Of a DNA stretch of 64,000 nt, positions 276 through 32,499 are shown piece by piece. Numbering within the stretch: position 1 is the first letter of the stretch; each line of letters opens with the position of its first letter. The notes beneath the pieces are model-generated. The model was not told the DNA's origin. It did not search any database and was given only the letters and a program-made list of their open reading frames with translations. Location: NCBI GenBank assembly GCA_030390025.1, contig CM059432.1, positions 33,668,001-33,732,000 of the forward strand. The letters are read 5' to 3'. The DNA is from Squalus acanthias (lineage: Eukaryota). A program made the translations under genes and the position numbers.

Positions 276-1168
276 GGGGTAAAAATTCACTTGGTTGCGC
301 CACCCGTTAGCGCCTTAAGAGGGCGCTAATGGGGCGCAAAGCCGCTAACGCCCGGGCGCAGCGATGTTTGCGCCGCTCGAGAACTTAACTTGAGATTGTG
401 CGGCGGCGCTAAAACTTACCGCTGCGACCACCTGCGCGCGCAGATTGTGACGTCATTCCATGGTGCAACGCCCTTGGGGCGCCCCGTAGCGGAAATTGAG
501 TGGCGCCCCCTGCCTTACCGCCTGGCGCTTCCAACGACCAGAAGACTGGAACGCTATCAATCGCTGTGGGGCTGGGGGGGGCGCTATTTAAAGGGGGCCT
601 CTTCCTGTCTTTTATTGTTGGTGGCATTTTTGAACTACTCATTCTGAGAGAGAGAGGGAGAGACTTCTGGAGAGATTCAACGTTGTGTGAAGGAGTTTTG
701 GGTACTGAGCAGCACTTTGCAGGTTCATTTTGATTTGCCATTCCTTGTATCGATTTAGCAGAGAACGTGGGAGCTGCACTCTGAGCTCTTTGCCTGGTGC
801 TCTCCGTTGTTCTTTCCAGCACATTTGATGTACAGGTCTCTCCAGGCCGAGATTCAAGGCAGCAATGAACAGGATGTGGATGGAAAGCAAGATTAACCAT
901 CCCCTTTAAGAACTGGCCCGTGCCATTGTGTGTGTGTTCCATTGCTGACTGACATTACATGAGCTTCGCCAGCGCTCCGAGTGAGCGCCTCACTGCTCGG
1001 CCTTTGCGCCTTAAGAGAGGTGTGCAGCGCCTGCTTTAGCGCTACACTCACCTCCCGGGGCGGTAAAAGTGAAGTTTCCCGTCAATGCCGATAATTAGCG
1101 CCAGGCGCTAATATTTGCGTCCGGACGATATTTGCGCCCCAAATGGGGCGCGACCTAATTTCTACCCC
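276..1168 (+). mobile_element. Non-autonomous PIF/Harbinger element (MITE-like, 893 bp), copy N1
   Basis: TIRs GGGGTAAAAATT / AATTTCTACCCC. TGT on both sides (273-275, 1169-1171). An empty paralogous site with a single TGT is at 7190-7192. Both ends match the ends of the 4.2-kb elements. Confidence 0.95.
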
Positions 1169-4100
1169 TGTGTCTCTGGAATGTATGAGGCTGTGTCTCT
1201 AGTCTGAATGAGACTGTGTCGCTCGACTGTATGATGCTGTTTCTCTGGACTGCATGAGGTTGTGTCTCTGGGCTGCATGAGGCTTTGTCTCTGGACTGTA
1301 TGAGGCTGTGTCCCTGGACTATATGATGCTGTGTCTCTGGACTGCATGTGGCTGTTTCCCTTGACTGTATGAGGCTGTGTCCCTGGACTGTATGAAGCTG
1401 TGTCTCTTGACTGTATGAGGCTGTGTCCCTGGAATATATGAGGCTGTGTCCCTGGACTGTATGAGGCTGTGTCCCTGGAATATATGAGGCTGTGTCCCTG
1501 GACTGTATGAGGCTGTGTCCCTGGAATATATGAGGCTGTGTCCCTGGACTGTATGAGGCTGTGTCTCTGGAATGTATGAGGCTGTGTCTCCAGACTGAAT
1601 GAGGTTGTGTCCTTGGACTGTATGAGGCTGTGTTTTTAGACTGTATGAGATTGTGTCTCTGGACTGTATGAGTCTGTGTCCTTGGACTGTATGAGGCTGT
1701 GTCTCTGGACTGTATGAGATTGTGTTTCTGGACTGCATGAGGCTGTGTCCTTGGGCAGTATGAGGCTGTGTCTCTGGACTGTATGAGGCTGTGCCCCTGG
1801 AAAATATGATACTGGGTCTCTGGAATGTATGAGGCTGTGTCTCTAGACTGAATGAGGCTGTGTCTCTGGACTGTATGAGGCCGTGTCTCTGGACTGCATG
1901 AGGCTGTGTCCCAAGACTGTACGAGGCTGTGTTTCTGGACTGCATGAGGTTGTGTCTCTGGACTGTACGAGGCTGTCTCTGGGCTGTATCAGGCTGTGTC
2001 TCTCGACTGTATGAGGCTGTGTCTCTGGACAGTATGAGGCTGTGTCTCTGGACTGTATGAGGTTGTGTCTCTGGACTATATGAGGCTGTGTCTCTGGACT
2101 GTATGAGGCTGTGTCTCTGGACTGTATGAGGTTGTGTCTCTGGACTATATCAGACCTTGTCTCTGGAATGTATGAGGCTGTGTCTCTGGACTGTATGAGG
2201 CTGTGTCTCTGGACTGTATGAGGTTGTGACTCTGGACTGTATGAGGCTGTGTCTCTGGACTGAATGAGGCTGTGCCTCTGGACTATATTAGGCTGTGACT
2301 CTGGACAGTATGAGACTGTGTCTCTGGACTGAATGAGGCTGTGTCTCTGGACTGTATGAGGCTGTGTCTCTGGACTGTATGAGGCTGTGTCTCTGGACTG
2401 TAAGAGGCTGTGTCTCTGGACTGTATGAGGTATGTGACTCTGGACTATATGAGGCTGTGTCTCTGGAGTGTATGAGGCTGTGACTCTGGACTGTATGAGG
2501 CTGTGTCTCTGGAATGCATGAGGTTGTGTATCTGGACTGGATGAGGCTGTGTCTCTGGACTGAATGAGGCTGTGTCTCTGGATTGTATGAGGCTGTGGCT
2601 TTGGACTGTATGAGGCTGTGTCTCTGGACTGTATGAGGTTGTGTCTCTGGATTGTATGAGGCTGTGGCTTTGGACTGTATGAGGCTGTGTCTCTGGACTG
2701 TATGAGGCTGTGTCTCTGGACTGTATGAGGCTGTGTCTCTGGACTATAGGAGGCTGTGACTCTGGACTATATGAGGCTGTGTTTCTGAACTGAATGTGTC
2801 TGTGTCTCTGGACTGTATGTGGCTGTGTCTCTGGACTGCATGAGGTTGTGTATCTGGACTGGATGAGGCTGTGTCTCTGGACTGAATGAGGCTGTGTCTC
2901 TGGATTGTATGAGGCTGTGGCTTTGGACTGTATGAGGCTGTGTCTCTGGACTGTATGAGGTTGTGTCTCTGGATTGTATGAGGCTGTGGCTTTGGACTGT
3001 ATGAGGCTGTGTCTCTGGACTGTATGAGGCTGTGTCTCTGGACTGTATGAGGCTGTGTCTCTGGACTGTATGAGGCTGTGTCTCTGGACAGTATGAGGCT
3101 GTGTCTCTGGACTGTATGAGGTTGTGTCTCTGGACTATATGAGGCTGTGTCTCTGGACTGTATGAGGCTGTGTCTCTGGACTGTATGAGGTTGTGTCTCT
3201 GGACTATATCAGACCTTGTCTCTGGAATGTATGAGGCTGTGTCTCTGGACTGTATGAGGCTGTGTCTCTGGACTGTATGAGGTTGTGACTCTGGACTGTA
3301 TGAGGCTGTGTCTCTGGACTGAATGAGGCTGTGCCTCTGGACTATATTAGGCTGTGACTCTGGACAGTATGAGACTGTGTCTCTGGACTGAATGAGGCTG
3401 TGTCTCTGGACTGTATGAGGCTGTGTCTCTGGACTGTATGAGGCTGTGTCTCTGGACTGTAAGAGGATGTGTCTCTGGACTGTATGAGGTATGTGACTCT
3501 GGACTATATGAGGCTGTGTCTCTGGAGTGTATGAGGCTGTGACTCTGGACTGTATGAGGCTGTGTCTCTGGAATGCATGAGGTTGTGTATCTGGACTGGA
3601 TGAGGCTGTGTCTCTGGACTGAATGAGGCTGTGTCTCTGGATTGTATGAGGCTGTGGCTTTGGACTGTATGAGGCTGTGTCTCTGGACTGTATGAGGTTG
3701 TGTCTCTGGATTGTATGAGGCTGTGGCTTTGGACTGTATGAGGCTGTGTCTCTGGACTGTATGAGGCTGTGTCTCTGGACTGTATGAGGCTGTGTCTCTG
3801 GACTATAGGAGGCTGTGACTCTGGACTATATGAGGCTGTGTTTCTGAACTGAATGTGTCTGTGTCTCTGGACTGTATGTGGCTGTGTCTCTGGACTGCAT
3901 GAGGTTGTGTATCTGGACTGGATGAGGCTGTGTCTCTGGACTGAATGAGGCTGTGTCTCTGGATTGTATGAGGCTGTGGCTTTGGACTGTATGAGGCTGT
4001 GTCTCTGGACTGTATGAGGTTGTGTCTCTGGATTGTATGAGGCTGTGGCTTTGGACTGTATGAGGCTGTGTCTCTGGACTGTATGAGGCTGTGTCTCTGG

Positions 4101-4920
4101 ACTGTATGAGGCTGTGTCTCTGGACTGTATGAGGCTGTGTCTCTGGACTGTATGAGGCTGTGACTCTGGACTGTATGAGGCTGTTTCCCTGGACTGTATG
4201 AGGCTGTTTCCCTGGACTGTATGAGGCTGTTTCCCTGGACTGTATGAGGCTGTTTCCCTGGACTGTATGAGGCTGTTTCCCTGGACTGTATGAGGCTGTT
4301 TCCCTGGACTGTATGAGGCTGTTTCCCTGTACTGTATGAGGCTGTTTCCCTGGAAAATATGACACTGTGTCTCTGGACTGTATGAGGCTGTGTCTCTGGA
4401 CTGGATGAGGCTGTGTCTCTGGACTGGATGAGGCTGTGTCTCTGGACTGCATGAGGTTGTGTCTCTGGACTGGATGAGGCTGTGTCTCTGGACTGAATGA
4501 GGTTGTGTCTCTGGACTGTATGAGGCTGTGTCTCTGGACTGTATGAGGCTGTTTCCCTGGAAAATATGACACTGTGTCCCTGGACTGTATGAGGCTGTGT
4601 CTTTGGACTGCATGAGGTTGTGTCTCTGGACTGGATGAGGCTGTGTCTCTGGACTGTATTAGACTGTTTCCCTGGACTGTATGAGGCTGTGTCACTGGAC
4701 TTTATGAGACTGTGTCCTTGGACTGTATGAGGCTGTGTCTCTGGACTGTTTGAGGCTGTGTCGCTGGATTATATGTGGCTGTGACTCTGGACTGTATGAG
4801 GCTGTTTCTCTGGACTGTATGAGGCTGTGTCTCTGGACTGTAAGAGGCTGTGTCTCTGGACTATATGAGGCTGTGTCTCTGGAGTGTATGAGGCTGTCTC
4901 TCTGGACTGTAAGAGGCTGT

Positions 4921-5812
4921 GGGGTAAAAATTCACTTGGTTGCGCCTCCCGTTAGCGCCTTAAGAGGGCGCTAATGGGGCGCAAAGCCGCTAACGCCCGG
5001 GCGTAGCGATGTTTGCGCCGCTCGAGAACTTAACTTGAGATTGTGTGGCGGCGCTAAAACTTACCGCTGCGACCACCTGCGCGCGCAGATTGTGACGTCA
5101 TTCCGTGGTGCAACGCCCTTGTGGCGCCCCGTAGCAGAAATTGAGTGGCGCCCCCTGCCTTACCGCCTGGCGCTTCCAACGACCAGAAGACTGGAACGCT
5201 ATCAATCGCTGTGGGGCTGGGGGGGGCGTTATTTAAAGGGGGCCTCTTCCTGTCTTTTATTGTTGGTGGCATTTTTGAACTACGCATTCTGAGAGAGAGA
5301 GGGAGAGACTTCTGGAGAGATTCAACGTTGTTTGAAGGAGTTTTGGGTACTGAGCAGCACTTTGCAGGTTCATTTTGATTTGCCATTCCTTGTATCGATT
5401 TAGCAGAGACTGTGGGAGCTGCACTCTGAGCTCTTTGCCTGGTACTCTCCATTGTACTTCCAGCACATTTGATGTGCAAGTCTCTCCAGGCCGAGATTCA
5501 AGGCTGCAATGAACAGGATGTGGATGGAAAGCAATATTAACCATCCCCTTTAAGAACTGGCCTGTGCCATTGTGTGTGTGTTCCATTGCTGACTGACATT
5601 ACATGAGCTTCGCCAGCGCTCCGAGTTAGCGCCTCACTGATCGCCCTTTGCGCCTTAAGAGAGGTGTGCAGCGCCTGCTTTAGCGCTCCACTCACCTCCC
5701 GGGGCGGTAAAAGTGAAGTTTCCTGTCAGTGCCGATAATTAGCGCCAGGCGCTAATATTTGCGTCCGGACGATATTTGCGCCCCAAATGGGGCGCGACCT
5801 AATTTCTACCCC
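4921..5812 (+). mobile_element. Non-autonomous PIF/Harbinger element (892 bp), copy N2
   Basis: Near-identical to 276-1168, same TIRs, TGT duplication at 4918-4920 and 5813-5815. Confidence 0.95.
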
Positions 5813-8800
5813 TGTGTCTCTGGACTATAGGAGGCTGTGACTCTGGACTATATGAGGCTGTGTTTCTGGACTGAATGTGTCTGTGTCTCTGGACTGTATG
5901 TGGCTGTGTCTCTGGACTGTATGAGGCTGTGTCCTTGGACTGTATGAGGCTGTGACTCTGGACTGTATGAGGCTGTGTTGCTGGACTGGATGAGCCTGTG
6001 TGTCTGGACTGTATGATGCTGTTTCTCTGGACTGCATGAGGCTGTGTCCCTGGCCTGTATGAGGCTGTATCTCTGGACTGCATGAGGCTGTGTCCCTGGA
6101 CTGTATGATGCTGTATCTCTGGACTGCATGAGGCTGTGTCTCTGGACTTTATGAGGCTGTGTCTCTGGACTTTATGAGGCTGTGACTCTGGACTGAATGA
6201 GGCTGTGTCGCTGGATTATATGAGGCTGTGACTCTGGACAGTATGAGGCTGTGTCTCTGGACTGTATGAGGCTGTGTCTCTGGACTTTATGAGCTGTGTC
6301 TCTGGACTGTATGAGGCTGTGCCCCTGGAAAATATGACACTGTGTCTCTGGAATGTATGAGGCTGTGTCTCTAGTCTGAATGAGGCTGTGTCACTCGACT
6401 GTATGATGCTGTTTCTCTGGACTGCATGAGGCTGTTTCTCTGGACTGCATGAGGCTGTGTCCCTGGACTGTACGAGGCTGTCTCTGGGCTGCATGAGGCT
6501 TTGTCTCTGGACTGTATGAGGCTGTGTCCCTGGACTATATGAGGCTGTGTCTCTGGACTGAATGAGGCTGTGTCCGTGGGCTGTATGAGGCTGTGTCTCT
6601 GGACTGTATGAGTCCTTGTCTCTAGATTGTATGAGGCTGTGTCCTTGGATTTTATGAGGCTGTGTCTCTGGACTGCATGTGGCTCTAACTCTGGACTGTA
6701 TGAGGCTGTGACTCTGGACTGTATGAGGCTGGGTCTCTGGACTGTAGGAGGCTCTGACTCTGGACTGTATGAGGCTGTGACACTGGACTGTATGAGGCTG
6801 GGTCTCTGGACTGCATGAGGCTGTGTCTCTGGACTGAATGAGGCAGTGACTCTGGACTGTGTGAGGCTGTGTCTCTGGACTGTATGAGGCGGTGTCCCTG
6901 GATTGTATGTGGTTGTGTCCCTGGAATATGTGAGGCTGTGTCCCTGGACTGTATGAGGCTGTGTCCCTGGAATATATGAGGCTGTGTCCCTGGAATATAT
7001 GAGGCTGTGTCCCTGGACTGTATGAGGCTGTGTCCCTGGACTCTATGAGGCTGTGTCTCTGGACTGAATGAGGCTGTGTCTCTGGACTTTATGAGGCTGT
7101 GTCCCTGGATTATATGAGGCTGTGACTCTGGACTGTATGAGGCTGTGACTCTGGACTGTATGAGGCTGTGCCCCTGGAAAATATGACACTGTGTCTCTGG
7201 AATGTATGAGGCTGTGTCTCTAGTCTGAATGAGGCTGTTTCGCTCGACTGTATGATGCTGTTTCTCTGGACTGCATGAGGTTGTGTCTCTGGGCTGCATG
7301 AGGCTTTGTCTCTGGACTGTATGAGGCTGTGTCCCTGGACTATATGAGGCTGTGTCTCTGGACTGCATGTGGCTGTTTCCCTTGACTGTATGAGGCTGTG
7401 TCCCTGGACTGTATGAAGCTGTGTCTCTTGACTGTATGAGGCTGTGTCCCTGGAATATATGAGGCTGTGTCCCTGGACTGTATGAGGCTGTGTCCCTGGA
7501 ATATATGAGGCTGTGTCCCTGGACTGTATGAGGCTGTGTCCCTGGAATATATGAGGCTGTGTCCCTGGACTGTATGAGGCTGTGTCTCTGGAATGTATGA
7601 GGCTGTGTCTTCAGACTGAATGAGGTTGTGTCCTTGGACTGTATGAGGCTGTGTTTTTAGACTGTATGAGATTGTGTCTCTGGACTGTATGAGTCTGTGT
7701 CCTTGGACTGTATGAGGCTGTGTCTCTGGACTGTATGAGATTGTGTCTCTGGACTGCATGAGGCTGTGTCCTTGGGCAGTATGAGGCTGTGTCTCTGGAC
7801 TGTATGAGGCTGTGCCCCTGGAAAATATGATACTGGGTCTCTGGAATGTATGAGGCTGTGTTTCTAGACTGAATGAGGCTGTGTCTCTGGACTGTATGAG
7901 GCAGTGTCTCTGGACTGCATGAGGCTGTGTCCCAAGACTGTACGAGGCTGTGTTTCTGGACTGCATGAGGTTGTGTCTCTGGACTGTACGAGGCTGTCTC
8001 TGGGCTGTATGAGGCTGTGTCTCTCGACTGTATGAGGCTGTGTCTCTGGACAGTATGAGGCTGTGTCTCTGGACTGTATGAGGTTGTGTCTCTGGACTAT
8101 ATCAGACCTTGTCTCTGGAATGTATGAGGCTGTGTCTCTGGACTGTATGAGGCTGTGTCTCTGGACTGTATGGGACTGTGTCTCTGGACTGTATGAGGCT
8201 GTGACTCTGGACAGTATGAGGCTGTGTCTCAGGACTGTATGAGGCTGTGTCTCTGGACTGTATGAGGCTGTGTTGTGGACTGTATGAAGCTGTGTCGCTG
8301 GACTGTATGAGGTTGTGACTCTGGACTGTATGAGGCTGTGTCTCTGGACTGAATGAGGCTGTGCCTCTGGACTATATTAGGCTGTGACTCTGGACATTAT
8401 GAGACTGTGTCTCTGGACTGAATGAGGCTGTGTCTCTGGACTGTATGAGGCTGTGTCTCTGGACTGTATGAGGCTGTGTCTCTGGACTGTAAGAGGCTGT
8501 GTCTCTGGACTGTATGAGGTATGTGACTCTGGACTATATGAGGCTGTGTCTCTGGAGTGTATGAGGCTGTCTCTCTGGACTGTAAGAGGCTGTGTGGTAG
8601 AAATTAGGTCGCGCCCCATTTGGGGCGCAAATATCGACCGGACGCAAATATTAGCGCCTGGCGCTAATTATCGGCACTGACAGGAAACTTCACTTTTACC
8701 GCCCCGGGAGGTGAGTGGAGCGCTAAAGCAGGCGCTGCACACCTCTCTTAAGGCGCAAATGCCAAGGAGTGAGGCGCTAACTCAGCGCACGAGCGCAGCG

Positions 8801-8950
8801 CAGCTGCTGCCAGTTAGCGAGGGAACACAGACACACTGGCGCCGGACACTTCTTAAAGTGGGGGGGGCCACTTGCTCCCCAGCCACACCCTGCTCATTGC
8901 AGCCTTGAATCTCAGCCTGGAGAGACCTGTAATCCATTTTGCTGCCAAGC

Positions 8951-10827
8951 ATGGAGAGGGTGAGAGAACGCGCTCATCGCTTCACCGAGCGGGCCTTGGA
9001 TGCTCTGGTTGACGCAGTGGAGCGCAGACGATGCATGCTGTTCCCGGAGAGTGGCAGGAGGCCTTTGCCACGCGAGTTCAGAAGAGTGTGGAAGGAGGTG
9101 GCTCAGAGCGTCTCCTCCAGGAGCATGGTGCCCAGGACCCATGTTCAATGCCGCAAAAAGTTCAACGACCTCACTCGGGTCGTCAGGGTGAGTGGCTTTT
9201 TCTCAATACCTCTCCATCCCTCCATCTCAACCTCACTCTATGGCCAGAGGGTCTTAAAACCCCAATGCACAACACTCATCCAACACCTATGGCCCTTTCA
9301 TCAAACACACACACACATTCCACACTTTGCATACAGTAAGAGCTATTCACCTATGGGAGGCACATCAGGCAAGACCATGGCTGTATATTGTAAGGGCTAT
9401 TCACCTATGGGAGGCACATCAGGCAAGACCATGGCTGTATATTGTAAGGGCTATTCACCTATGGGAGGCACATCAGGCAAGACCATGGCTGTATATTTAC
9501 TCAGATGCTGTCCTTTTTCTTGCAGGCTAAGCTGGCTCATAATCGGAGACAGCAGCAACGGACTGGTGGAGGGCGGCTTCAGCTGCAACCCCTCAGCGAT
9601 CTGGAGGAGCGCGTCCACAGGATTGTGGCAAGCCGGGTGATCGTTCCCGTCGCCACTGGAGACGCCGACCCCGTTGTGGACAGCAATGGTAAGGTCATCA
9701 CCTTTTTGTCCTCTGTCCTTCCACTTGTCCCTCACAATACCAGCCTTTGACACTTTCAATCCAACTTGCTAACTCGCTGCACTTATTCCTCCCTTACTGC
9801 CACCCTGTCCTCACGCTAAAGCCACTCTTGTACCTCCCTGCTTTCAGATGGTGATTCACCAGCTGAGGAGACGGGCCCTGAAGCTGCCACTGGGAGTGAT
9901 GCTGCAGCCGAGGAGGAAGAGGAAGCCGGAGCATCAGTGCCACCCTCTCCCGAGGAAGCCCATGCCCACACTGGGAACACGCCTTCCCCGGAGGGGAGCA
10001 GGGGGGAAGGGGCTGATGATGGTGAAGCTCCAGGACCCAGCGGGCTGCAGCAACGCCATGGGGGGAGTAGGGAAGAACGGGGGCCTTCTCCCCAGAGGGA
10101 GAGTATGCCAGACACTCCTACTGCAATGGACGCAGAGGAGGAGCGGCTGATTGCAGAAATGAACACCCAGGCGGTGGGCATGCACACTGAGCTCATGGGT
10201 GCAGTGGGAAGGGTGCCCGAATGCATTGAGTCACTGGCAAGGAGTGTGGAGCACTTCGCTGTAGCACAGGCGGATGCCACACTAACGCTTAGTGCTGCAA
10301 TTCAGTCACTGGCTGCCGTGATCCCACCTCTGACTGCTCTCATACAGACTCAGATGGAGGCCACGCGAGCACAGACTGCTGCCAACCTCGATGGTTCGTG
10401 CACATGTCCCCGGGGCTGTCACCGCGCCGCAGCAGGCCAGCAATCTGTTCTCCGGCAGATTGCTCCGGATGCTGAAGTGCTGCCCCGTGGGAGTGCCAGT
10501 GTGTCGGGCGAGCAGGGAGTTGCTGTCCTCTCGCACGATGACAGCATTCCTGCTGCCAACACTGTCACTTCTCCACTGCACTTGCCACCGCCTGTAGGAC
10601 AGACTGCTGCCGCCCATGCAGAGTTGGTGCAGTCTGCAGCCGGGCCCTCCAGGCCCAGAAGTGGTCGAGGCCGTCCTTCAGGGGCATCTGCAGTGTCAGG
10701 GTCTGACGAGCAGCAGCCTTCCACCAGCCTTGCTGCAGCCACTGAGGTCCCATTACGGAGGAGCAGTAGGGTTAGAAGGGGGGAAGTGCGCAAGGGAAGG
10801 AGATCACCCTCGAAGGGCAAAAAGTAG
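8951..10827 (+). CDS. Harbinger Myb/SANT-like DNA-binding protein, 3 exons (8951-9187, 9526-9688, 9848-10827), predicted 459 aa
   Basis: Exon 1 reads RFTERALDALVDAV...W.EVA..V......RT..QCRKKFNDL (Myb/SANT-like, NAIF1/MSANTD type). GT-AG introns (AGG|GTGAGT, TTGCAG|, ATG|GTAAGG, TTTCAG|) join in frame to the RTGGG motif and to ORF 9937-10827, which has a basic C-terminus. Confidence 0.88.
9341..9497 (+). repeat. 54-bp tandem repeat (3 copies) in intron 1 of the Myb-like gene
   Basis: GCTATTCACCTATGGGAGGCACATCAGGCAAGACCATGGCTGTATATTGTAAGG occurs 3 times here and twice in the other two full-length copies. Confidence 0.9.
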
Positions 10828-11121
10828 GAGGTGTGCCAAAATGCTGGTCATTTTTTTATTAAAGGCCGAGGTTCATGGTCCAACTTTTGTTTAGTGTTTT
10901 GGACATTATCTCCAGGTTGTGAGAACCAGTTATGTTATTGACTGTTTTTTTGTGTTTATTTCTATGAGTTTGTCATGAGGAATTGACACACACAGAGTTT
11001 GTAAAATAAATAAGTTTCTGTATTCAAAATATACATGGCTGGTGGTTGGAATTATTGGTGCCTTGGCCGGCTTAGGGGTTGCGTGCTGGGTTGATTAGTG
11101 TTTGTAGCAATGGCAGGGGCC

Positions 11122-12282: not shown

Positions 12283-12476
12283 ATTCTCTTTGCCAGAAAA
12301 GTAATGAGGTACAGCAACTAAAGTAGCAACAAAGTTAGGATGAATAGGCAAAACTACCTCACAAAGCGTTGAGTCAATGTAGAAGTCTCTCTCTCTCTCT
12401 CTCCGAATCTCTCTCTCTCTCTCAGAACGAGTGGTGCATAAATGTCGACCACAGAAAAAGACAGGAAGAGGCCCCC

Positions 12477-12621
12477 TTTAAATAGCGCCCCCCCCAGCCC
12501 CACACCGATTGATAACGTTCCAGTCTTCCGGTCGTTGGAAGCGCCAGGCGGTAAGGCAGGGGGCGCCACTCAATTTCCGCTCCGGGGCGCCCCAAGGGCG
12601 TTGCACCATGGAATGACGTCA
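12477..12621 (-). promoter_or_regulatory. Putative transposase promoter: TATTTAAA box and palindromic CRE (TGACGTCA)
   Basis: TTTAAATA at 12477-12484 lies ~200 bp upstream of the ATG, and TGACGTCA is at 12614-12621. The same pair is kept in N1, N2 and the 43409-44181 MITE. Confidence 0.5.
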
Positions 12622-15054
12622 CAATCTGCGCGCGCAGGTGGTCGCAGCGGTAAGTTTTAGCGCCGCCGCACAATCTCAAGTTAAGTTCTCGAGCGGCGCA
12701 AACAGCGCTGCGCCCGGGCGTTAGCGGCTTAACGCCCCATTAGCGCCCTCTTAAGGCGCTAATGGGAGGCGCAACCAAGTGAATTTTTACCCCTGTGTCT
12801 CTGGACTATAGGAGGCTGTGACTCTGGACTATATGAGGCTGTGTTTCTGGACTGAATGTGTCTGTGTCTCTGGACTGTATGTGGCTGTGTCTCTGGACTG
12901 CATGAGGTTGTGTATCTGGACTGGATGAGGCTGTGTCTCTGGACTGAATGAGGCTGTGTCTCTGGATTGTATGAGGCTGTGGCTTTGGACTGTATGAGGC
13001 TGTGTCTCTGGACTGTATGAGGTTGTGTCTCTGGATTGTATGAGGCTGTGGCTTTGGACTGTATGAGGCTGTGACTCTGGACTGTATGAGGCTGTGTCTC
13101 TGGACTGGATGACGCTGTGACTCTGGACTGTATGAGGCTGTTTCCCTGGACTGTATGAGGCTGTTTCCCTGGACTGTATGAGGCTGTTTCCCTGGACTGT
13201 ATGAGGCTGTTTCCCTGGACTGTATGAGGCTGTGTCTCTGGACTGTATGAGGCTGTGTCTCTGGACTGTATGAGGCTGTTTCCCTGGAAAATATGACACT
13301 GTGTCTCTGGACTGTATGAGGCTGTGTCTCTGGACTGGATGAGGCTGTGTCTCTGGACTGCATGAGGTTGTGTCTCTGGACTGGATGAGGCTGTGTCTCT
13401 GGAATGAATGAGGTTGTGTCTCTGGACTGTATGAGGCTGTGTCTCTGGACTGTATGAGGCTGTTTCCCTGGAAAATATGACACTGTGTCCCTGGACTGTA
13501 TGAGGCTGTGTCTTTGGACTGCATGAGGCTGTGTCTCTGGACTGTATGAGGCTGTGTCTCTGGACTGTATGCGGCTGTGTCTCTGGACTGGATGACGCTT
13601 TGACTCTGGACTGTATGAGGCTGTTTCCCTGGACTGTATGAGGCTGTTTCCCTGGACTGTATGAGGCTGTTTCCCTGGACTGTATGAGGCTGTTTCCCTG
13701 GAAAATATGACACTGTGTCTCTGGACTGGATGAGGCTGTTTCCCTGGACTGTATGAGGCTGTGCCCCTGGAAAATATGACACTGTGTCTCTGGAATGTAT
13801 GAGGCTGTGTCTCTCGACTTTAGGAGGCTGTGTCACTGGAGTATGTGAGGCTGTGTCTCTCGACTGAATGATGCTGTGTCTCTAGACTGTATGAGGCTGT
13901 TTCCCTGGACTGTATGAGGCTGTTTCCCTGGACTTTATGAGGCTGTGCCCCTGGAATGTATGAGGCTGTGTCTCTGGACTGTATGAGGCTGTGTCTCTGG
14001 ACTGTATGAGGCTGTTTCCCTGGACTGTATGAGGCTGTTTCCCTGGACTGTATGAGGCTGTTCCCTGGAATGTATGAGGCTGTGACTCTGGTCTGTATGA
14101 GGTTGTGTCCTTGGACTGTATGAGGCTGTGTTTCTGGACTGTATGAGACTGTGTCCCTGAACTGTACGAGGCTGTGTCTCTGGACTGTATTAGGCTGTGT
14201 CTCTGGACTGTATGAGGCTGTGACTCTGGACTGTATGAGGCTGTTTCCCTGGACTGTATGAGGCTGTGCCCATGGACTGTATGAGGCTGTTTCCCTGGAC
14301 TGTATGAGGCTGTATCCCTGGACTGTATGAGGCTGTTTCCCTGGACTGTATGAGGCTGTGCCCCTGGAAAATATGACACTGTGTATCTGGACTGTATGAG
14401 GCTGTGTATCTGGACTGTTTGAGGCTGTGTATCTGGACTGTATGAGTCTGTGTCTCTGGACTGTATGAGGCTCTGTCTCTGGACTATATGAGGCTGTGTC
14501 CCTGGATTGTATGAGGCTGTGTCCCTGGACTGTATGAGGCTGTGTCCCTGGACTGTATGAGGCTGTGTCCCTGGACTGTATGAGGCTGTGTCTCTTGACT
14601 GTATGAGGCTGGGTCTCTGGACTGTATGAGTCTGTGTCTCTGGACTGTATGAGGCTGTGTCTCTGGACTGTATGAGTCTGTGTCTCTGGACTCTATGGGG
14701 TAGAAATTAGGTCGCGCCCCATTTGGGGCGCAAATATCGTTCGAGCGCAAATATTAGCGCCTGGCACTAATTATCGGCACTGACAGGAAACTTCACTTTT
14801 ACCGCCCCGGGAGGTGAGTGGAGCGCTAAATTAGACGCTGCACACCTCTCTTAAGGCGCAAAGGCCAAGGAGTGAGGCGCTAACTCAGCGCACGAGCGCA
14901 GCGCAGCTGCTGCCAGTTAGCGAGGGAACACAGACACACTGGCGCCGGACACTTCTTAAAGCGGGGGGGGGCCACTTGCTCCCCAGCCACACCCTGCTCA
15001 TTGCAGCCTTGAATCTCAGCCTGGAGAGACCTGTAATCCATTTTGCTGCCAAGC

Positions 15055-16868
15055 ATGGAGAGGGTGAGAGAACGCGCTCATCGCTTCACCGAGCGGGCCT
15101 TGGATGCTCTGGTTGACGCAGTGGAGCGCAGACGATGCATGCTGTTCCCGGAGAGTGGCAGGAGGCCTTTGCCACGCGAGTTCAGAAGAGTGTGGAGGGA
15201 GGTGGCTCAGAGCGTCTCCTCCAGGAGCATGGTGCCCAGGACCCATGTTCAGTGCCGCAAAAAGTTCAACGACCTCACTCGGGTCGTCAGGGTGAGTGGC
15301 TTTTTCTCAATACCTCTCCATCCCTCCATCTCAACCTCACTCTATGGCCAGAGGGTCTTAAAACCCCAATGCACAACACTCATCCAACACCTATGGCCCT
15401 TTCATCAAACACACACACACATTCCACACTTTGCATACAGTAAGGGCTATTCACCTATGGGAGGCACATCAGGCAAGACCATGGCTGCATATTGTAAGGG
15501 CTATTCACCTATGGGAGGCACATCAGGCAAGACCATGGCTGTATATTTACTCAGATGCTGTCCTTTTTCTTGCAGGCTCATAATCGGAGACAGCAGCAAC
15601 GGACGGGTGGAGGGCGGCTTCAGCTGCAACCCCTCAGCGATCTGGAGGAGCGCGTCCACAGGATTGTGGCAAGCCGGGTGATCGGTCCCGTCGCCACTGG
15701 GGACGCCGACCCCGTTGTGGACAGCAATGGTAAGGTCATCACCTTTTTGTCCTCTGTCCTTCCACTTGTCCCTCACAATACCAGCCTTTGACACTTTCAA
15801 TCCAACTTGCTAACTCGCTGCACTTATTCCTCCCTTACTGCCACCCTGTCCTCACGCTAAAGCCACTCTTGTACCTCCCTGCTTTCAGATGGTGATTCAC
15901 CAGCTGAGGAGACGGGCCCTGAAGCTGCCACTGGGAGTGATGCTGCAGCTGAGGAGGAAGAGGAAGCCGGAGCATCAGTGCCACCCTCTCCCGAGGAAGC
16001 CCATGGCCACACTGGGAACACGCCTTCCCCGGAGGGGAGCAGGGGGGAAGGGGCTGATGATGGTGAAGCTCCAGGACCCAGCGGGCTGCAGCAACGCCAT
16101 GGGGGGGGGAGGGAAGAACGGGAGCCTTCTCCCCAGAGGGAGAGTATGCCAGACACTCCTACTGCAATGGACGCAGAGGAGGAGCGGCTGATTGCAGAAA
16201 TGAACAGCCAGGCGGTGGGCATGCACACTGAGCTCATGGGTGCAGTGGGAAGGGTGCCCGAATGCATTGAGGCACTGGCAAGGAGTGTGGAGCACTTCGC
16301 TGTAGCACAGGCGGATGCCACACTAAAGCTTAGTGCTGCAATTCAGTCACTGGCTGCCAGGAACCCATCTGAGACTGCTCTCATGCAGACTCAGATTGAG
16401 GCCACGCGAGCACTGACTGCTGCCATCCTCGATGGTTCGTGCACATGTCCCCGGGGCTGTCACCGCGCCGCAGCAGGCCAGCAATCTGTTCTCCGGCAAA
16501 TTGCTCCGGATGCTGAAGTGCTGCCCCGTGGGAGTGCCAGTGTGTCGGGCGAGCAGGGAGTTGCTGTCCTCTCTCACGATGACAGCATTCCTGCTGCCAA
16601 CACTGTCACTTCTCCACTGCACTTGCCACCGCCTGTAGGACAGACTGCTGCCGCCCATGCAGAGTTGGTGCAGTCTGCAGCCGGGCCCTCCAGGCCCAGA
16701 AGTGGTCGAGGCCGTCCTTCAGGGGCATCTGCAGTGTCAGGGTCTGACGAGCAGCAGCCTTCCACCAGCCTTGCTGCAGCCACTGAGGTCCCATTACGGA
16801 GGAGCAGTAGGGTTAGAAGGGGGGAAGTGCGCAAGGGAAGGAGATCACCCTCGAAGGGCAAAAAGTAG
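15055..16868 (+). CDS. Myb/SANT-like protein of copy A2, exons 15055-15291, 15576-15729, 15889-16868 (predicted 456 aa)
   Basis: Same splice sites as A1, with a 9-bp in-frame deletion at the start of exon 2. Confidence 0.82.
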
Positions 16869-17162
16869 GAGGTGTGCCAAAATGCTGGTCATTTTTTTAT
16901 TAAAGGCCGAGGTTCATGGTCCAACTTTTGTTTAGTGTTTTGGACATTATCTCCAGGTTGTGAGAACCAGTTATGTTATTGACTGTTTTTTTGTGTTTAT
17001 TTCTATGAGTTTGTCATGAGGAATTGACACACACAGAGTTTGTAAAATAAATAAGTTTCTGTATTCAAAATATACATGGCTGGTGGTTGGAATTATTGGT
17101 GCCTTGGCCGGCTTAGGGGTTGCGTGCTGGGTTGATTAGTGTTTGTAGCAATGGCAGGGGCC

Positions 17163-18325
17163 CTAGAAGCGGCTTGCTATTAGTCGTTGACGGACGGCCC
17201 TTGCAGTTTGACCATTGTGGGCCGCCCTCCTGCCTTGGTGCTGCTGATGATCATCGTCCTCGTCCTCTTCCTCCTCTTCCTCCTCCTCCTCTGGTGGTGC
17301 TACAAGGCCTGGTGGCATTGGCTGGGTCCTGAGGATTGCCATGTTGTGCAACATGCAGCACACGACTACGAAGTTCGAAACTTGCTCAGGCGAGTACTGC
17401 AGGGGCTCCTCCGGAATGGTCCAGACAGCGGAACCGTTGTTTCAGCACGCCGATTGTGCGCTCAATAATGTTCCTGGTTGCTTGATGGCTTTCATTGTAC
17501 CGCAGCTCAGCAGGGGTGTTTGGCGTACGGAGCGGTGTCATTAGCCAGGTGCTCAATGCGTACCCCTTGTCCCCCAGAAGCCAACCAACTGGCTGATGCG
17601 GTGCCTCGAAAACCTCTGCCACAGTAGTCTGGCGCAGGATGAAAGCATCGTGGCAGCTGCCCGGATAGTGGGCATTGACAGCGAGTATCACCTGTCTGTG
17701 GTCACAGACCAACTGCACATTCAAGGAATGGAACCCCTTTCTGTTCCTGAATTCCTCTGCATTCTCTCGCGGAGCACGCAAAGCCACATGCGTGCAGTCA
17801 ATGGCGCCCTGCACCATGGGGAAGCCCGCTACCCTCGCAAAGCCCAGAGCACGGTCACGCTGCTTGTCTGGGGTCATAGGGAAAGAGATGAAGTCTCGTC
17901 TCCTTCTGAAGAGGGCATTGGTGACCTGCCGGATGCAGCGATGCACCGCAAACTGGGAGATATTGGCGAGGTCCCCAACAGCAGCTTGGAATGAGCCAGT
18001 GGCGTAGAAGTTCAAAGCCACTGTGACCTTCACTGCCACCGACAGAGACGTCCTGGACCTCAGCTGAGGCTGCAGATCTGGCTGCAGCAGGTGGCAGAGC
18101 TCAGTGACCACCTCCTTGCTGAATCGCAGCCTTCGCAAACACAGCTCCTCGGACATATGGATGTAGGAGAGCTGTTCACGATATACCCTGGGAGGGTAAG
18201 CTCTCCTGTACATGCGCCTGATGGCCCTCCTCCGTCTGGCCATCATTGCCACTCTCTGTCTGCGTCTCAGCTATCCTCCGATTGAGCTGGAGCAGGACGA
18301 CGCCCCCAATCATTGCAGCCCCCAT
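17163..18325 (-). pseudogene. Harbinger transposase of copy A2 with two +1 frameshifts (~17401 and ~18270)
   Basis: Split into ORFs 17386-18252 and 17163-17363, otherwise nearly identical to A1/A3. The frameshifts may be consensus errors. Confidence 0.8.
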
Positions 18326-20133
18326 ATTCTCTTTGCCAGAAAAGTAATGAGGTACAGCAACTAAAGTAGCAACAAAGTTAGGATGAACTAGGCAAAACTA
18401 CCTCACAAAGCGTTGAGTCAATGTAGAAGTCTCTCTCTCTCTCTCTCCGAATCTCTCTCTCTCTCTCAGAACGAGTGGTGCATAAATGTCGACCACAGAA
18501 AAAGACAGGAAGAGGCCCCCTTTAAATAGCGCCCCCCCCAGCCCCACACCGATTGATAACGTTCCAGTCTTCCGGTCGTTGGAAGCGCCAGGCGGTAAGG
18601 CAGGGGGCGCCACTCAATTTCCGCTCCGGGGCGCCCCAAGGGCGTTGCACCATGGAATGACGTCACAATCTGCGCGCGCAGGTGGTCGCAGCGGTAAGTT
18701 TTAGCGCCGCCGCACAATCTCAAGTTAAGTTCTCGAGCGGCGCAAACAGCGCTGCGCCCGGGCGTTAGCGGCTTAACGCCCCATTAGCGCCCTCTTAAGG
18801 CGCTAATGGGAGGCGCAACCAAGTGAATTTTTACCCCTGTGTCTCTGGACTATAGGAGGCTGTGACTCTGGACTATATGAGGCTGTGTTTCTGGACTGAA
18901 TGTGTCTGTGTCTCTGGACTGTATGTGGCTGTGTCTCTGGACTGCATGAGGTTGTGTATCTGGACTGGATGAGGCTGTGTCTCTGGACTGAATGAGGCTG
19001 TGTCTCTGGATTGTATGAGGCTGTGGCTTTGGACTGTATGAGTCTGTGTCTCTGGACTGTATGAGGTTGTGTCTCTGGATTGTATGAGGCTGTGGCTTTG
19101 GACTGTATGAGGCTGTGTCTCTGGACTGTATGAGGCTGTGTCTCTGGACTGTATGAGGCTGTGTCTCTGGACTGTATGAGGCTGTGTCTCTGGACTGTAT
19201 GAGGCTGTGACTCTGGACTGTATGAGACTGTGTCCCTGAACTGTACGAGGCTGTGTCTCTGGACTGTATTAGGCTGTGTCTCTGGACTGTATGAGGCTGT
19301 GACTCTGGACTGTATGAGGCTGTTTCCCTGGACTGTATGAGGCTGTGCCCATGGACTGTATGAGGCTGTTTCCCTGGACTGTATGAGGCTGTATCCCTGG
19401 ACTGTATGAGGCTGTTTCCCTGGACTGTATGAGGCTGTGTCCCTGGAAAATATGACTCTGTGTATCTGGACTGTATGAGGCTGTGTATCTGGACTGTTTG
19501 AGGCTGTGTATCTGGACTGTATGAGTCTGTGTCTCTAGACTGTATGAGGCTCTGTCTCTGGACTATATGCGGCTGTGTCCCTGGATTGTATGAGGCTGTG
19601 TCCCTGGACTGTATGAGGCTGTGTCCCTGGACTGTATGAGGCTGTGTCCCTGGACTGTATGAGGCTGTGTCTCTTGACTGTATGAGGCTGGGTCTCTGGA
19701 CTGTATGAGTCTGTGTCTCTGGACTGTATGAGGCTGTGTCTCTGGACTGTATGAGTCTGTGTCTCTGGACTCTATGGGGTAGAAATTAGGTCGCGCCCCA
19801 TTTGGGGCGCAAATATCGTTCGAGCGCAAATATTAGCGCCTGGCACTAATTATCGGCACTGACAGGAAACTTCACTTTTACCGCCCCGGGAGGTGAGTGG
19901 AGCGCTAAATTAGACGCTGCACACCTCTCTTAAGGCGCAAAGGCCAAGGAGTGAGGCGCTAACTCAGCGCACGAGCGCAGCGCAGCTGCTGCCAGTTAGC
20001 GAGGGAACACAGACACACTGGCGCCGGACACTTCTTAAAGCGGGGGGGGGCCACTTGCTCCCCAGCCACACCCTGCTCATTGCAGCCTTGAATCTCAGCC
20101 TGGAGAGACCTGTAATCCATTTTGCTGCCAAGC

Positions 20134-21957
20134 ATGGAGAGGGTGAGAGAACGCGCTCATCGCTTCACCGAGCGGGCCTTGGATGCTCTGGTTGACGCAG
20201 TGGAGCGCAGACGATGCATGCTGTTCCCGGAGAGTGGCAGGAGGCCTTTGCCACGCGAGTTCAGAAGAGTGTGGAGGGAGGTGGCTCAGAGCGTCTCCTC
20301 CAGGAGCATGGTGCCCAGGACCCATGTTCAGTGCCGCAAAAAGTTCAACGACCTCACTCGGGTCGTCAGGGTGAGTGGCTTTTTCTCAATACCTCTCCAT
20401 CCCTCCATCTCAACCTCACTCTATGGCCAGAGGGTCTTAAAACCCCAATGCACAACACTCATCCAACACCTATGGCCCTTTCATCAAACACACACACACA
20501 TTCCACACGTTGCATACAGTAAGGGCTATTCACCTATGGGAGGCACATCAGGCAAGACCATGGCTGCATATTGTAAGGGCTATTCACCTATGGGAGGCAC
20601 ATCAGGCAAGACCATGGCTGTATATTTACTCAGATGCTGTCCTTTTTCTTGCAGGCTAAGCTGGCTCATAATCGGAGACAGCAGCAACGGACGGGTGGAG
20701 GGCGGCTTCAGCTGCAACCCCTCAGCGATCTGGAGGAGCGCGTCCACAGGATTGTGGCAAGCCGGGTGATCGGTCCCGTCGCCACTGGGGACGCCGACCC
20801 CGTTGTGGACAGCAATGGTAAGGTCATCACCTTTTTGTCCTCTGTCCTTCCACTTGTCCCTCACAATACCAGCCTTTGACACTTTCAATCCAACTTGCTA
20901 ACTCGCTGCACTTATTCCTCCCTTACTGCCACCCTGTCCTCACGCTAAAGCCACTCTTGTACCTCCCTGCTTTCAGATGGTGATTCACCAGCTGAGGAGA
21001 CGGGCCCTGAAGCTGCCACTGGGAGTGATGCTGCAGCTGAGGAGGAAGAGGAAGCCGGAGCATCAGTGCCACCCTCTCCCGAGGAAGCCCATGGCCACAC
21101 TGGGAACACGCCTTCCCCGGAGGGGAGCAGGGGGGAAGGGGCTGATGATGGTGAAGCTCCAGGACCCAGCGGGCTGCAGCAACGCCATGGGGGGGGGGAG
21201 GGAAGAACGGGAGCCTTCTCCCCAGAGGGAGAGTATGCCAGACACTCCTACTGCAATGGACGCAGAGGAGGAGCGGCTGATTGCAGAAATGAACAGCCAG
21301 GCGGTGGGCATGCACACTGAGCTCATGGGTGCAGTGGGAAGGGTGCCCGAATGCATTGAGGCACTGGCAAGGAGTGTGGAGCACTTCGCTGTAGCACAGG
21401 CGGATGCCACACTAAAGCTTAGTGCTGCAATTCAGTCACTGGCTGCCAGGAACCCATCTGAGACTGCTCTCATGCAGACTCAGATTGAGGCCACGCGAGC
21501 ACTGACTGCTGCCATCCTCGATGGTTCGTGCACATGTCCCCGGGGCTGTCACCGCGCCGCAGCAGGCCAGCAATCTGTTCTCCGGCAAATTGCTCCGGAT
21601 GCTGAAGTGCTGCCCCGTGGGAGTGCCAGTGTGTCGGGCGAGCAGGGAGTTGCTGTCCTCTCTCACGATGACAGCAGTCCTGCTGCCAACACTGTCACTT
21701 CTCCACTGCACTTGCCACCGCCTGTAGGACAGACTGCTGCCGCCCATGCAGAGTTGGTGCAGTCTGCAGCCGGGCCCTCCAGGCCCAGAAGTGGTCGAGG
21801 CCGTCCTTCAGGGGCATCTGCAGTGTCAGGGTCTGACGAGCAGCAGCCTTCCACCAGCCTTGCTGCAGCCACTGAGGTCCCATTACGGAGGAGCAGTAGG
21901 GTTAGAAGGGGGGAAGTGCGCAAGGGAAGGAGATCACCCTCGAAGGGCAAAAAGTAG
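20134..21957 (+). pseudogene. Myb/SANT-like gene of copy A3 (exons 20134-20370, 20655-20817, 20977-21957) with a +1 G in a homopolymer at 21189-21198
   Basis: G10 here versus G9 in A2 shifts the exon-3 frame. This could be a sequencing homopolymer error. Confidence 0.7.
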
Positions 21958-22251
21958 GAGGTGTGCCAAAATGCTGGTCATTTTTTTATTAAAGGCCGAG
22001 GTTCATGGTCCAACTTTTGTTTAGTGTTTTGGACATTATCTCCAGGTTGTGAGAACCAGTTATGTTATTGACTGTTTTTTTGTGTTTATTTCTATGAGTT
22101 TGTCATGAGGAATTGACACACACAGAGTTTGTAAAATAAATAAGTTTCTGTATTCAAAATATACATGGCTGGTGGTTGGAATTATTGGTGCCTTGGCCGG
22201 CTTAGGGGTTGCGTGCTGGGTTGATTAGTGTTTGTAGCAATGGCAGGGGCC

Positions 22252-23412
22252 CTAGAAGCGGCTTGCTATTAGTCGTTGACGGACGGCCCTTGCAGTTTGA
22301 CCATTGTGGGCCGCCCTCCTGCCTTGGTGCTGCTGATGATCATCGTCCTCGTCCTCTTCCTCCTCTTCCTCCTCCTCCTCTGGTGGTGCTACAAGGCCTG
22401 GTGGCATTGGCTGGGTCCTGAGGATTGCCATGTTGTGCAACATGCAGCACACGACTACGAAGTTCGAAACTTGCTCAGGCGAGTACTGCAGGGCTCCTCC
22501 GGAATGGTCCAGACAGCGGAACCGTTGTTTCAGCACGCCGATTGTGCGCTCAATAATGTTCCTGGTTGCTTGATGGCTTTCCTGGTACCGCAGCTCAGCA
22601 GGGGTGTTTGGCGTACGGAGCGGTGTCATCAGCCAGGTGCTCAATGCGTACCCCTTGTCCCCCAGAAGCCAACCAACTGGCTGATGCGGTGCCTCGAAAA
22701 GTTCTGCCACAGTAGTCTGGCGCAGGATGAAAGCATCGTGGCAGCTGCCCGGATAGTGGGCATTGACAGCGAGAATCACCTGTCTGTGGTCACAGACCAA
22801 CTGTACATTCAAGGAATGGAACCCCTTTCTGTTCCTGAATTCCTCTGCATTCTCTCGCGGAGCACGCAAAGCCACATGCGTGCAGTCAATGGCGCCCTGC
22901 ACCATGGGGAAGCCCGCTACCCTCGCAAAGCCCATAGCACGGTCATGCTGCTTGTCTGGGGTCATAGGGAAAGAGATGAAGTCTCGTCTCCTTCTGAAGA
23001 GGGCATTGGTGACCTGCCGGATGCAGCGATGCACCGCAAACTGGGAGATATTGGCGAGGTCCCCAACAGCAGCTTGGAATGAGCCAGTGGCGTAGAAGTT
23101 CAAAGCCACTGTGACCTTCACTGCCACCGACAGAGACGTCCTGGACCTCAGCTGAGGCTGCAGATCTGGCTGCAGCAGGTGGTAGAGCTCAGTGACCACC
23201 TCCTTGCTGAATCGCAGCCTTCGCAAACACAGCTCCTCGGACATATGGATGTAGGAGAGCTGTTCACGATATACCCTGGGAGGGTAAGCTCTCCTGTACA
23301 TGCGCCTGATGGCCCTCCTCCGTCTGGCCATCATTGCCACTCTCTGTCTGCGTCTCACTATCCTCCGATTCAGCTGGAGCAGGACGACGCCCCCAATCAT
23401 TGCAGCCCCCAT
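22252..23412 (-). CDS. Harbinger (HARBI1-like) DDE transposase, 386 aa, intact
   Basis: Full ORF with GAIDCTH / HDA / LLGDKGY / IERTIG catalytic motifs. Confidence 0.96.
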   Translation of the reverse strand: MGAAMIGGVVLLQLNRRIVRRRQRVAMMARRRRAIRRMYRRAYPPRVYREQLSYIHMSEELCLRRLRFSKEVVTELYHLLQPDLQPQLRSRTSLSVAVKVTVALNFYATGSFQAAVGDLANISQFAVHRCIRQVTNALFRRRRDFISFPMTPDKQHDRAMGFARVAGFPMVQGAIDCTHVALRAPRENAEEFRNRKGFHSLNVQLVCDHRQVILAVNAHYPGSCHDAFILRQTTVAELFEAPHQPVGWLLGDKGYALSTWLMTPLRTPNTPAELRYQESHQATRNIIERTIGVLKQRFRCLDHSGGALQYSPEQVSNFVVVCCMLHNMAILRTQPMPPGLVAPPEEEEEEEEEDEDDDHQQHQGRRAAHNGQTARAVRQRLIASRF

Positions 23413-25894
23413 ATTCTCTTTGCCAGAAAAGTAATGAGGTACAGCAACTAAAGTAGCAACAAAGTTAGGATGAACTAGGCCAAACTACCTCACAAAGCGT
23501 TGAGTCAATGTAGAAGTCTCTCTCTCTCTCTCTCCGAATCTCTCTCTCTCTCTCAGAACGAGTGGTGCATAAATGTCGACCACAGAAAAAGACATGAAGA
23601 GGCCCCCTTTAAATAGCGCCCCCCCCAGCCCCACACCGATTGATAACGTTCCAGTCTTCCGGTCGTTGGAAGCGCCAGGCGGTAAGGCAGGGGGCGCCAC
23701 TCAATTTCCGCTCCGGGGCGCCCCAAGGGCGTTGCACCATGGAATGACGTCACAATCTGCGCGCGCAGGTGGTCGCAGCGGTAAGTTTTAGCGCCGCCGC
23801 ACAATCTCAAGTTAAGTTCTCGAGCGGCGCAAACAGCGCTGTGCCCGGGCGTTAGCGGCTTAACGCCCCATTAGCGCCCTCTTAAGGCGCTAACGGGAGG
23901 CGAAACCAAGTGAATTTTTACCCCTATAAGTCTGTGTCACTGTACTGTATGAGGCTGTGTCTCTGGACTGTATGAGGCTGTGTCTCTGGACTTTATGAGA
24001 TTGTGTCTCTGGACTATATGAGTCTGTCTCTCTGGACTGTATGAGGCTGTGTCTCTTCTCTGTATGAGGCTCTGTATCTGGACTGTATGAGGCTGTGTAT
24101 CTGGACTGTTTGAGGCTGAGTGCTTGGGCTGTATGAGGCTGTGTCTCTGGACTGTATGAGCGTGTGTCTCTGGACTGTATGAATCTGTGTATCTGGACTA
24201 TATGAGGCTGTCTCTCTGGACTATATGAGGCTGTGTCCCTGGACTGAATGAGGCTGTGTCCCTGGACTATATGAGGCTGTCTCTCTGGACTATATGAGGC
24301 TGTCTCTCTGGACTGTATGAGGCTGTGTCTCTTCTCTGTATGAGGCTCTGTCTCTGGACTGTATGCGGCTGTGTCTCTGGACTGTATGAGGCTGTGTCTC
24401 TGGACTATATGAGGCTGTGTCTCTGGACTGTATGTGGCTGTGTCTCTGGACTGTATGAGGCTGTGTCGTTGGGCTGTATGAGGCTGTGTCTCTGGACTGT
24501 ATGAGGCTGTGTCTCTTGACTGTATGAGACTGTGTCTCTGGACTGTATGAGGTTGTGTCTCTGGACTGTATGAGGCTCTGTCTCTGGACTGTATGAGGCT
24601 GTGTCTCCCGGCTTTATGAGGCTGTGTCCTTGGGCTGTATTAGATTTTGTCTCTGGACTGTAATAGGCTGTGTCCCTGGACTGTGTTGTAAGGCTGTGTC
24701 TCTGGACTGTATGAGGCTGTCTCTGGACTGTATGAGGCTTTGTCTCTGGACTGTCTGTGGCTGTGTCTCTGGACTGTATGAATCTGTGTATCTGGACTGT
24801 CTGAGTCTGTGTCCCTGGATTGTATGAGGCTGTGTCCCTGGACTGTATGAGGCTGTGTCCCTGGACTGTATGAGGCTGTCTCTCTGGACTATCTGAGGCT
24901 GTGTCCCTGGACTGTATGAGGCTGTGTCCCTGGACTGTATGAGGCTGTGTCTCTGGACTGTATGAGGCTGTCTCTCTGGACTATCTGAGGCTGTGTCCCT
25001 GGACTGTATGAGGCTGTGTCCCTGGACTGTATGAGTCTGTCTCCCTGGATTGTATGAGGCTGTGTCCCTGGACTGTATGAGGCTGTGTCCCTGGACTGTA
25101 TGAGGCTGTCTCTCTGGACTATCTGAGGCTGTGTCCCTGGACTGTATGAGGCTGTCTCCCTGGATTGTATGAGGCTGTGTCCCTGGACTGTATGAGGCTG
25201 TCTCTCTGGACTATCTGAGGCTGTGTCCCTGGACTGTATGAGGCTGTGTCCCTGGACTGTATGAGGCTGTGTCTCTGGACTGTATGAGTCTGTGTCTCTG
25301 TACTGTATGAGTCTGTGTCTCTGGACTGTATGAGGCTGTGTCTCTGGACTGTATGAGTCTGTGTCTCTGGACTGTCTGAGATTGTGTCTCTGGACTGTAT
25401 GAGGCTGTGTCTCTGGACTTTATGAGATTGTGTCTCTGGACTGTATGAGGCTGTGTATCTGGACGGTATGAGGCTGTGTCACTGGACTGTGTTGTAATTC
25501 TGTCTCTGGACAGTATGAGACTGTGTCTCTGGACAGTATGAGATTGTGTCTCTGGACTGTATGTGGCTGTGTCTTTGGGCTGTATGAGGCTGTGTCTTTG
25601 GGCTGTATGAGGCTGTGTCTCTGGACTGTATGAGGCTGTGTCTTTGGGCTGTATGAGGCTCTATCTCTGTACTGTATGAGGCTCTGTCTCTGTACTGTAT
25701 GAGGCTGTGTCTCCCGACTTTATGAGGCTGTGTCCTTGGGCTGTATTAGATTTTGTCTCTGGACTGTAATAGGCTGTGTCCCTGGACTGTGTTGTAAGGC
25801 TGTGTCTCTGGACTGTATGAGGCTGTTTATCTGGACTGTATGATGCTGTCTCTGGACTGTATGAGGCTGTGTATCTGGACTGTATGAGGCTGTG

Positions 25895-30706: not shown

Positions 30707-30831
30707 ACGCAACCCCAATTCCCCATTCACCCACAGTCCCACGCCTTACCTTCCCTGTTACGGACCATCATAGCATCCTCCATTCCAAACCAACTTTATA
30801 CATCAATCCATCCAATATTACATAACAAAGT

Positions 30832-32457: not shown

Positions 32458-32499
32458 AAGTCAACTAATCACCCTTGTGCATTCCTTTAGTGCCTGTCT

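Follow-up and report, generated by a model that had tools for sequence, protein, structure and literature searches.

A dispersed Harbinger family has probably entered one shark minisatellite four times, at rare unit variants that approach its palindromic target

Introduction

Five transposable elements of one family lie within a single 23-bp satellite (satellite A) in the DNA analysed here, and the question arises whether the family is specialized for that satellite or whether the satellite offers sites of the kind that the family uses elsewhere. An earlier note on this DNA had taken the former position, and proposed a new system in which a two-gene Harbinger uses the satellite as a landing array and safe harbour. 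We located and bounded all five elements, as the note had described them, and compared their sites with those of dispersed copies. It is quite probable that a dispersed Harbinger hit one minisatellite four times, rare variants of the 23-bp unit approaching its palindrome. The four hits probably occurred because these variants resemble the 15-base motif at which transposons of this kind are known to land.

Results

The array and its elements

The window (the whole stretch of 64,000 nucleotides) contains the distal part of the array and the five elements:

1..25895, + strand: satellite A, with a unit of 23 bp; distal portion of the larger single-locus array
276..1168, + strand: N1, 893 bp, non-autonomous, duplication TGT/TGT
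4921..5812, + strand: N2, 892 bp, non-autonomous, duplication TGT/TGT
8594..12793, - strand: A1, 4,200 bp, two genes, duplication TGT/TGT, both frames open
14697..18837, - strand: A2, 4,141 bp, duplications that do not match, TAT on the left and TGT on the right
19776..23924, - strand: A3, 4,149 bp, duplication TAT/TAT

The first 41.4 kb of the array lie upstream of the window; minus the elements, the whole array comprises 53,037 bp or ~2,306 monomers. A genome-wide search returned 453 exact consensus monomers, all 453 within the satellite A array, and the four genome matches to the right-junction pattern of the satellite all fell inside the window. The five elements are confined to the distal 11.6 kb of the array. 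No family element was found in the upstream 41.4 kb, though the motif score is higher there; this upstream part is also more homogeneous than the distal part, and may be younger.

All five elements end in the same 12 bp, GGGGTARAAATT, and this end motif gave 15 matches at up to one mismatch, against 0.49 expected. A1, A2, and A3 are all oriented opposite to N1 and N2. The genes were best preserved in A1:

11122..12282, - strand: A1 transposase, 386 aa, DDE_Tnp_4 (PF13359, E 2e-38)
8951..10827, + strand: A1 Myb/SANT-like gene, 459 aa, predicted exons 8951-9187, 9526-9688, and 9848-10827

The nearest relatives of the transposase are HARBI1-like proteins of cartilaginous fishes, the best at 65-66% identity. 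The product of the second gene, whose three-exon model was deduced from GT-AG sites and the open frame, matched Myb_DNA-bind_5 (PF13873, E 5e-10). The pairing of a transposase with a Myb-like gene, already proposed in the note, was thus borne out by both domains. The transposase frame of A2 stops after 49 aa; that of A3 is open (386 aa), and the Myb gene of A3, read with the A1 splice model, stops at 247 aa. A 54-bp tandem repeat occupies the first predicted Myb intron in 2 to 3 copies, depending on the element (9336-9497 in A1, 15432-15547, and 20511-20626).

Number of independent insertions

The left flank of A2 is that of A3 and its right flank is that of A1, each exact over 205 bp. Split at alignment column 2770, A2 matches A3 in 93 columns and A1 in 3 on the left side, and A1 in 15 and A3 in 6 on the right. 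On these comparisons, A2 is likely an A3/A1 recombinant that arose by unequal crossing-over; an assembly artefact is also possible. With A2 taken as a recombinant with mismatched duplications, the five copies would therefore represent four insertions.

The remaining elements, N1, N2, A1, and A3, are independent copies. N1 and N2 show 25 differences and share no non-majority base, while pairs of dispersed copies have a median of 13 differences and a 95th percentile of 24 (2,701 pairs, 74 copies). Between A1 and A3 there are 10 differences in 880 bases, which is the median among 23 dispersed copies; A2 aside, each of the two has its closer relatives among dispersed copies. The N and A types diverge by 6-15%. 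An origin of the whole cluster in only one or two insertions, multiplied along with the array or spread by local hopping or gene conversion, is accordingly very unlikely, although A2 is itself such a product and N2 and A1 have identical flanks over 67 bp on the left and 107 bp on the right. The note had named a single insertion amplified with the array as the case that would undo its proposal; this holds for A2 only, and the pairwise differences exclude it for the other four, as they exclude N2 being a gene-conversion copy of N1. Among dispersed copies, two A-type pairs have identical left flanks, L029/L030 at a distance of 32 kb and L054/L055 at 5 kb; both pairs probably arose by local duplication.

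Distribution of the family in the genome

Exact copies of the 21-base left end number 5,126 in 3.71 Gb, evenly divided between the strands, and a transposase 26-mer gave 3,495 genome matches at up to one mismatch. Of the 5,126 left ends, only five belong to the satellite A array, whereas a repeat-specific (safe-harbour) transposon would have most of its copies at a single position of one host repeat. Per bp, the density of insertions in the array is ~55 times the genome average. Satellite flanks were absent from the first 100 ends listed, all of them in the first 55 Mb of contig C1. The array being one locus, a role for the satellite as a genome-wide landing pad is ruled out. So is a regional hot zone, as ~457 kb of non-array DNA around the array held one exact left end against 0.6 expected. 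The family is a young, high-copy, dispersed, two-gene member of PIF/Harbinger, with a DDE_Tnp_4/HARBI1-type transposase, a Myb/SANT second gene, short terminal inverted repeats starting with G, and a 3-bp duplication.

Target motif of dispersed insertions

The same 100 ends were used to derive a target matrix. A right end was found within 1 kb for 74 of them, and 59 of these 74 had a perfect 3-bp duplication and were used. Of the 41 ends left out, 26 had no right end within 1 kb, and 23 of these 26 were of the A type in the 880-900 bp that were compared; the other 15 had an imperfect duplication. Adding the left flanks of these 41 altered the matrix little.

The symmetrised consensus of the 59 dispersed insertions was TWARASWC-WWW-GWSTYTWA, with the core ARASWC-WWW-GWSTYT. 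The 18 flank positions carried 8.3 bits, compared with a mean of 0.33 and a maximum of 0.67 for random sites (500 draws), and still 7.9 bits once eight sites of the retroelement-tail type (see below) were removed. Hence, the extended palindromic target that characterizes PIF/Harbinger is present here, and the note was right that the family reads a long site and not a mere 3-bp preference. C and G flanked the duplication in 78 of 118 symmetrised cases. The duplications were mostly W-rich (TAT 10, ATA 8, TAA 7, TTA 6, TTT 5, CAG 1), with a central W in 56 of 59.

The particular motif that the note had drawn up, GANNC-TRT-RNNTC, does not describe the family, as only 5 of the 59 sites agree with it, all five of the tail type. 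TGT is a duplication that the family disfavours: TGT/ACA was seen in none of the 59 dispersed insertions, and genome-wide the duplication centre is C or G at 392 of 5,126 ends. A site in another dispersed repeat, GAAGGC-TTT-GTGTCTT, was used by 4 of the 100 sampled ends (L007, L011, L021, and L098), in both orientations.

Insertions into retroelement tails

A MITE elsewhere in the window had been listed by the note with the satellite insertions:

43409..44181, + strand: sister MITE, 773 bp, duplication TAT/TAT, target GACTC-TAT-GATTC, in an octamer-repeat tail

Its position and site were as claimed. The surroundings are not satellite: the octamer-repeat tail lies directly behind a frame for reverse transcriptase (RVT_1, E 1e-19), and the MITE itself belongs to a distant sister family, ~73% identical to the N and A ends. 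A second GGGGTAGAAATT end at 45448 was considered as its partner and rejected, since the MITE already ends at 44181 and no duplication accompanies the second end. Judging from the tail type, the retroelements with octamer tails may be CR1.

Such tails also receive the main family. Genome-wide, TRAYTCTAT precedes 285 ends and GARTYATA 236, together 521 of 5,126 (10%), and 30,813 empty TRAYTCTATRAYTC tail sites were counted. Occupancy is 1.7% per tail site against 0.17% per satellite monomer, roughly tenfold. Tail insertions occur in both orientations (e.g., L008, L012, L018, L059, L078, and 43409 in the window). At L059 two elements sit 8 bp apart in one tail, and at L019 a sister-family end lies 8 bp away. 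Octamer retroelement tails are a much larger sink for the family than the satellite A array.

Sites used within the array

The targets of N1, N2, A1, and A3 were rebuilt, and were identical to those given in the note. The N1 target is GACAC-TGT-GTCTC, which lies in a rare variant, ATATGACAC-TGT-GTCTCTGGA, and is present as a 13-mer 21 times in the array. N2 and A1 share their flanking context and the target GAGGC-TGT-GTCTC. A3, with the target GACTC-TAT-AAGTC, used the opposite half of the monomer, and its variant site has a single copy in the array.

The matrix was then run over the array from which the elements had been removed (53,037 bp, 53,017 positions). The site of N1 scored 9.6 bits, that of N2 and A1 9.0, and that of A3 10.8; the consensus monomer context scored 6.9, and true sites had a median of 9.4 (leave-one-out). 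All four used sites fell among the 293 best of the 53,017 positions; together, these 293 account for 70% of the predicted share. The 21-base consensus context, with 605 copies in the array, was used by none of the four insertions. As for GAGGC-TGT-GTCTC, which the note had placed once in every 23 bp, it was found in 797 of the ~2,306 monomers; the N2 and A1 sites carry an A at -7, a variant seen in 8 of these 797. Because the used sites are variants that score above the consensus and the consensus context is unused, the elements followed the family-wide motif and not the monomer.

The N2/A1 context exists in only three copies, representing 0.3% of the predicted share, and two of the three are occupied, one by N2 and the other by A1, which are different elements and point in opposite directions. 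A local preference stronger than the matrix captures would explain this, as would two alleles joined by unequal exchange.

These results bear on the proposal that the family is specialized for satellite A and uses it as a safe harbour. Four independent insertions within 11.6 kb, three of them at the same monomer register, speak in its favour. The genome-wide counts contradict it, the few ends in the satellite all belonging to an array at one locus of which 41 kb is empty; the consensus context is passed over, TGT/ACA does not recur at dispersed sites, and per-site occupancy is ten times higher in retroelement tails. We consider specialization extremely improbable, and a new satellite-targeting system is not supported; landing in satellite A would be ordinary target choice, of an extended kind already described for the superfamily.

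Excess of insertions in the array

By length alone, 0.073 insertions would be expected in the array and four are seen, an excess of ~55-fold. According to the matrix, the attractiveness of the array exceeds that of 200 kb of evenly sampled genomic DNA by a factor of 3.8-10.9, which agrees with the note that the satellite is richer than average DNA in target-like sites. At the genome rate, this gives an expectation of 0.28-0.80 and a probability of four or more of 0.0002-0.009 (12 matrix variants), a range to be read with the window having been chosen for its cluster. When the genome-wide centre frequency was used, the expectation was 0.44-0.65 (bootstrap 5-95%, 0.10-1.65). Calibration on tail sites raised it to 1.7-5.5, so that no excess remains, but this calibration is weak, with six empty tail contexts only. 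There may thus be a residual excess of array insertions beyond the matrix prediction.

Several findings count against purely passive capture: the matrix, built on 59 sites from one chromosome stretch, covers only 4-11-fold of the ~55-fold density, the surrounding DNA is not richer in the family, two of the three copies of the N2/A1 context are filled, and three of the four array insertions have a TGT centre, against the 392 C/G-centred ends genome-wide. An alternative would be that tandem arrays of near-motifs capture elements above the per-site rate, for instance because many transposase-Myb complexes bind next to one another or because insertions are tolerated there, and are true sinks. The residual 5-14-fold excess at the genome-wide rate is in line with this, as is the surrounding DNA, which is not enriched for the family. 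There is also an additional piece of the sister family at the edge of satellite A:

25889..26305, strand not assigned: sister-MITE fragment, end-less, 93% to the MITE at 43409, at the satellite A/B boundary
26303-27882: satellite B, a related 23-bp satellite, unit TCAGTGTCCCTGGGCTGCAGGGG

On the other side, the excess is gone after tail-site calibration (weak as that is), 41.4 kb of array with a higher mean score is empty, and the locus was selected for its cluster. We regard such above-rate capture as unlikely. The wider idea that arrays approximating the Harbinger palindrome are cooperative traps, taking up insertions several-fold beyond the prediction from their summed site quality, and that the captured copies seed unequal crossing-over that remodels the array (as in A2), seems to us equally doubtful. 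If it were true, the effect would be directly measurable in shark-like genomes with many such arrays. The fragment at 25889-26305, which lacks both ends and lies exactly between the two satellites, may be what a deletion left of a fifth independent insertion, one that split satellites A and B.

Discussion

Passive capture by a dispersed family remains our preferred explanation. By analogy with Harbinger3_DR and mPing, the Myb-like protein would bind the element ends and bring in the DDE transposase, and the complex would cut at the centre of the palindrome with a 3-base stagger. Insertion sites share a loose 15-19-bp palindrome, and near-palindrome variants of the 23-bp unit would be taken when they offer it. 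Judging from the flanks and informative sites, a later unequal crossing-over between A1 and A3 would have duplicated the intervening segment and given rise to A2. The array would then be a passive and minor sink.

PMC2836001 counts an extended target preference among the hallmarks of the superfamily, with 9 bp in plants and 15 bp in vertebrates. The closest likeness, one of described structure and target, is to zebrafish Harbinger3_DR and Harbinger3N_DR, for which PMC3016246 and PMC2836001 describe DDE and Myb-like genes, non-autonomous partners, and a 3-bp duplication. The Harbinger3_DR target is given as AAACACCWGGTCTTT, a 15-bp palindrome, i.e., AAACAC-CWG-GTCTTT (PMC3016246). Its flanks AAACAC and GTCTTT fit ARASWC and GWSTYT at 12 of 12 core positions, so that the resemblance suspected in the note agrees with the site as published. 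Unlike its CWG centre, the centre here is loose and W-rich (CAG 1 of 59).

Han et al. 2015 (PMC4482050) distinguish PHIS groups by triplet: PIF/Harbinger with TWA, NuwaI with CWG and ends starting with GGG, and NuwaII with C|TNA|G. The shark family resembles these groups in its two frames, Myb/SANT partner, length of ~4.1-4.5 kb, ends beginning with GGG, and C/G usually flanking the duplication. No single one of these triplet classes fits it (TWA 13 of 59, TNA 14 of 59, CWG 1 of 59), and the CWG count sets it apart from NuwaI. The mPing/Ping/Pong and Tourist-like MITEs, as PMC2836001 describes them, likewise have a two-protein system, an extended target, and a 3-bp duplication, with a preference of 9 bp in the plant mPing type against ~15 bp here. 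McGurk and Barbash 2018 (PMC5932611) describe how site preference alone leads to repeated insertion at one place and so to tandem or clustered transposons, to which the two elements in one tail at L059 are comparable; their case concerns Drosophila transposon dimers, unlike insertions into a pre-existing minisatellite. Literature searches that covered title listings and the openings of abstracts showed no satellite-targeting Harbinger or minisatellite hotspot.

The family shows the flank code of Harbinger3_DR with a different, looser centre, and its thousands of natural insertions would allow a precise Harbinger target matrix. A loose palindromic preference of this kind makes octamer retroelement tails and some minisatellites look targeted. 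In addition, A1 is an apparently intact copy, with both frames open, of an abundant young vertebrate Harbinger.

Some further observations were made in and around the window. A second large tandem array (L168-L169 and neighbours), with a 44-bp unit, extends over at least 47 kb from ~217 kb past the window start onward; the part retrieved held no family ends. Older Harbinger-like pieces, with 69-76% identity to A1 or the MITE, lie in the window at ~29957-32965, 45503-46375, 51612-52591, and 53109-53192. Several sister families ending in GGGGKARAAATT are frequent in this region as well as in evenly sampled genomic DNA.
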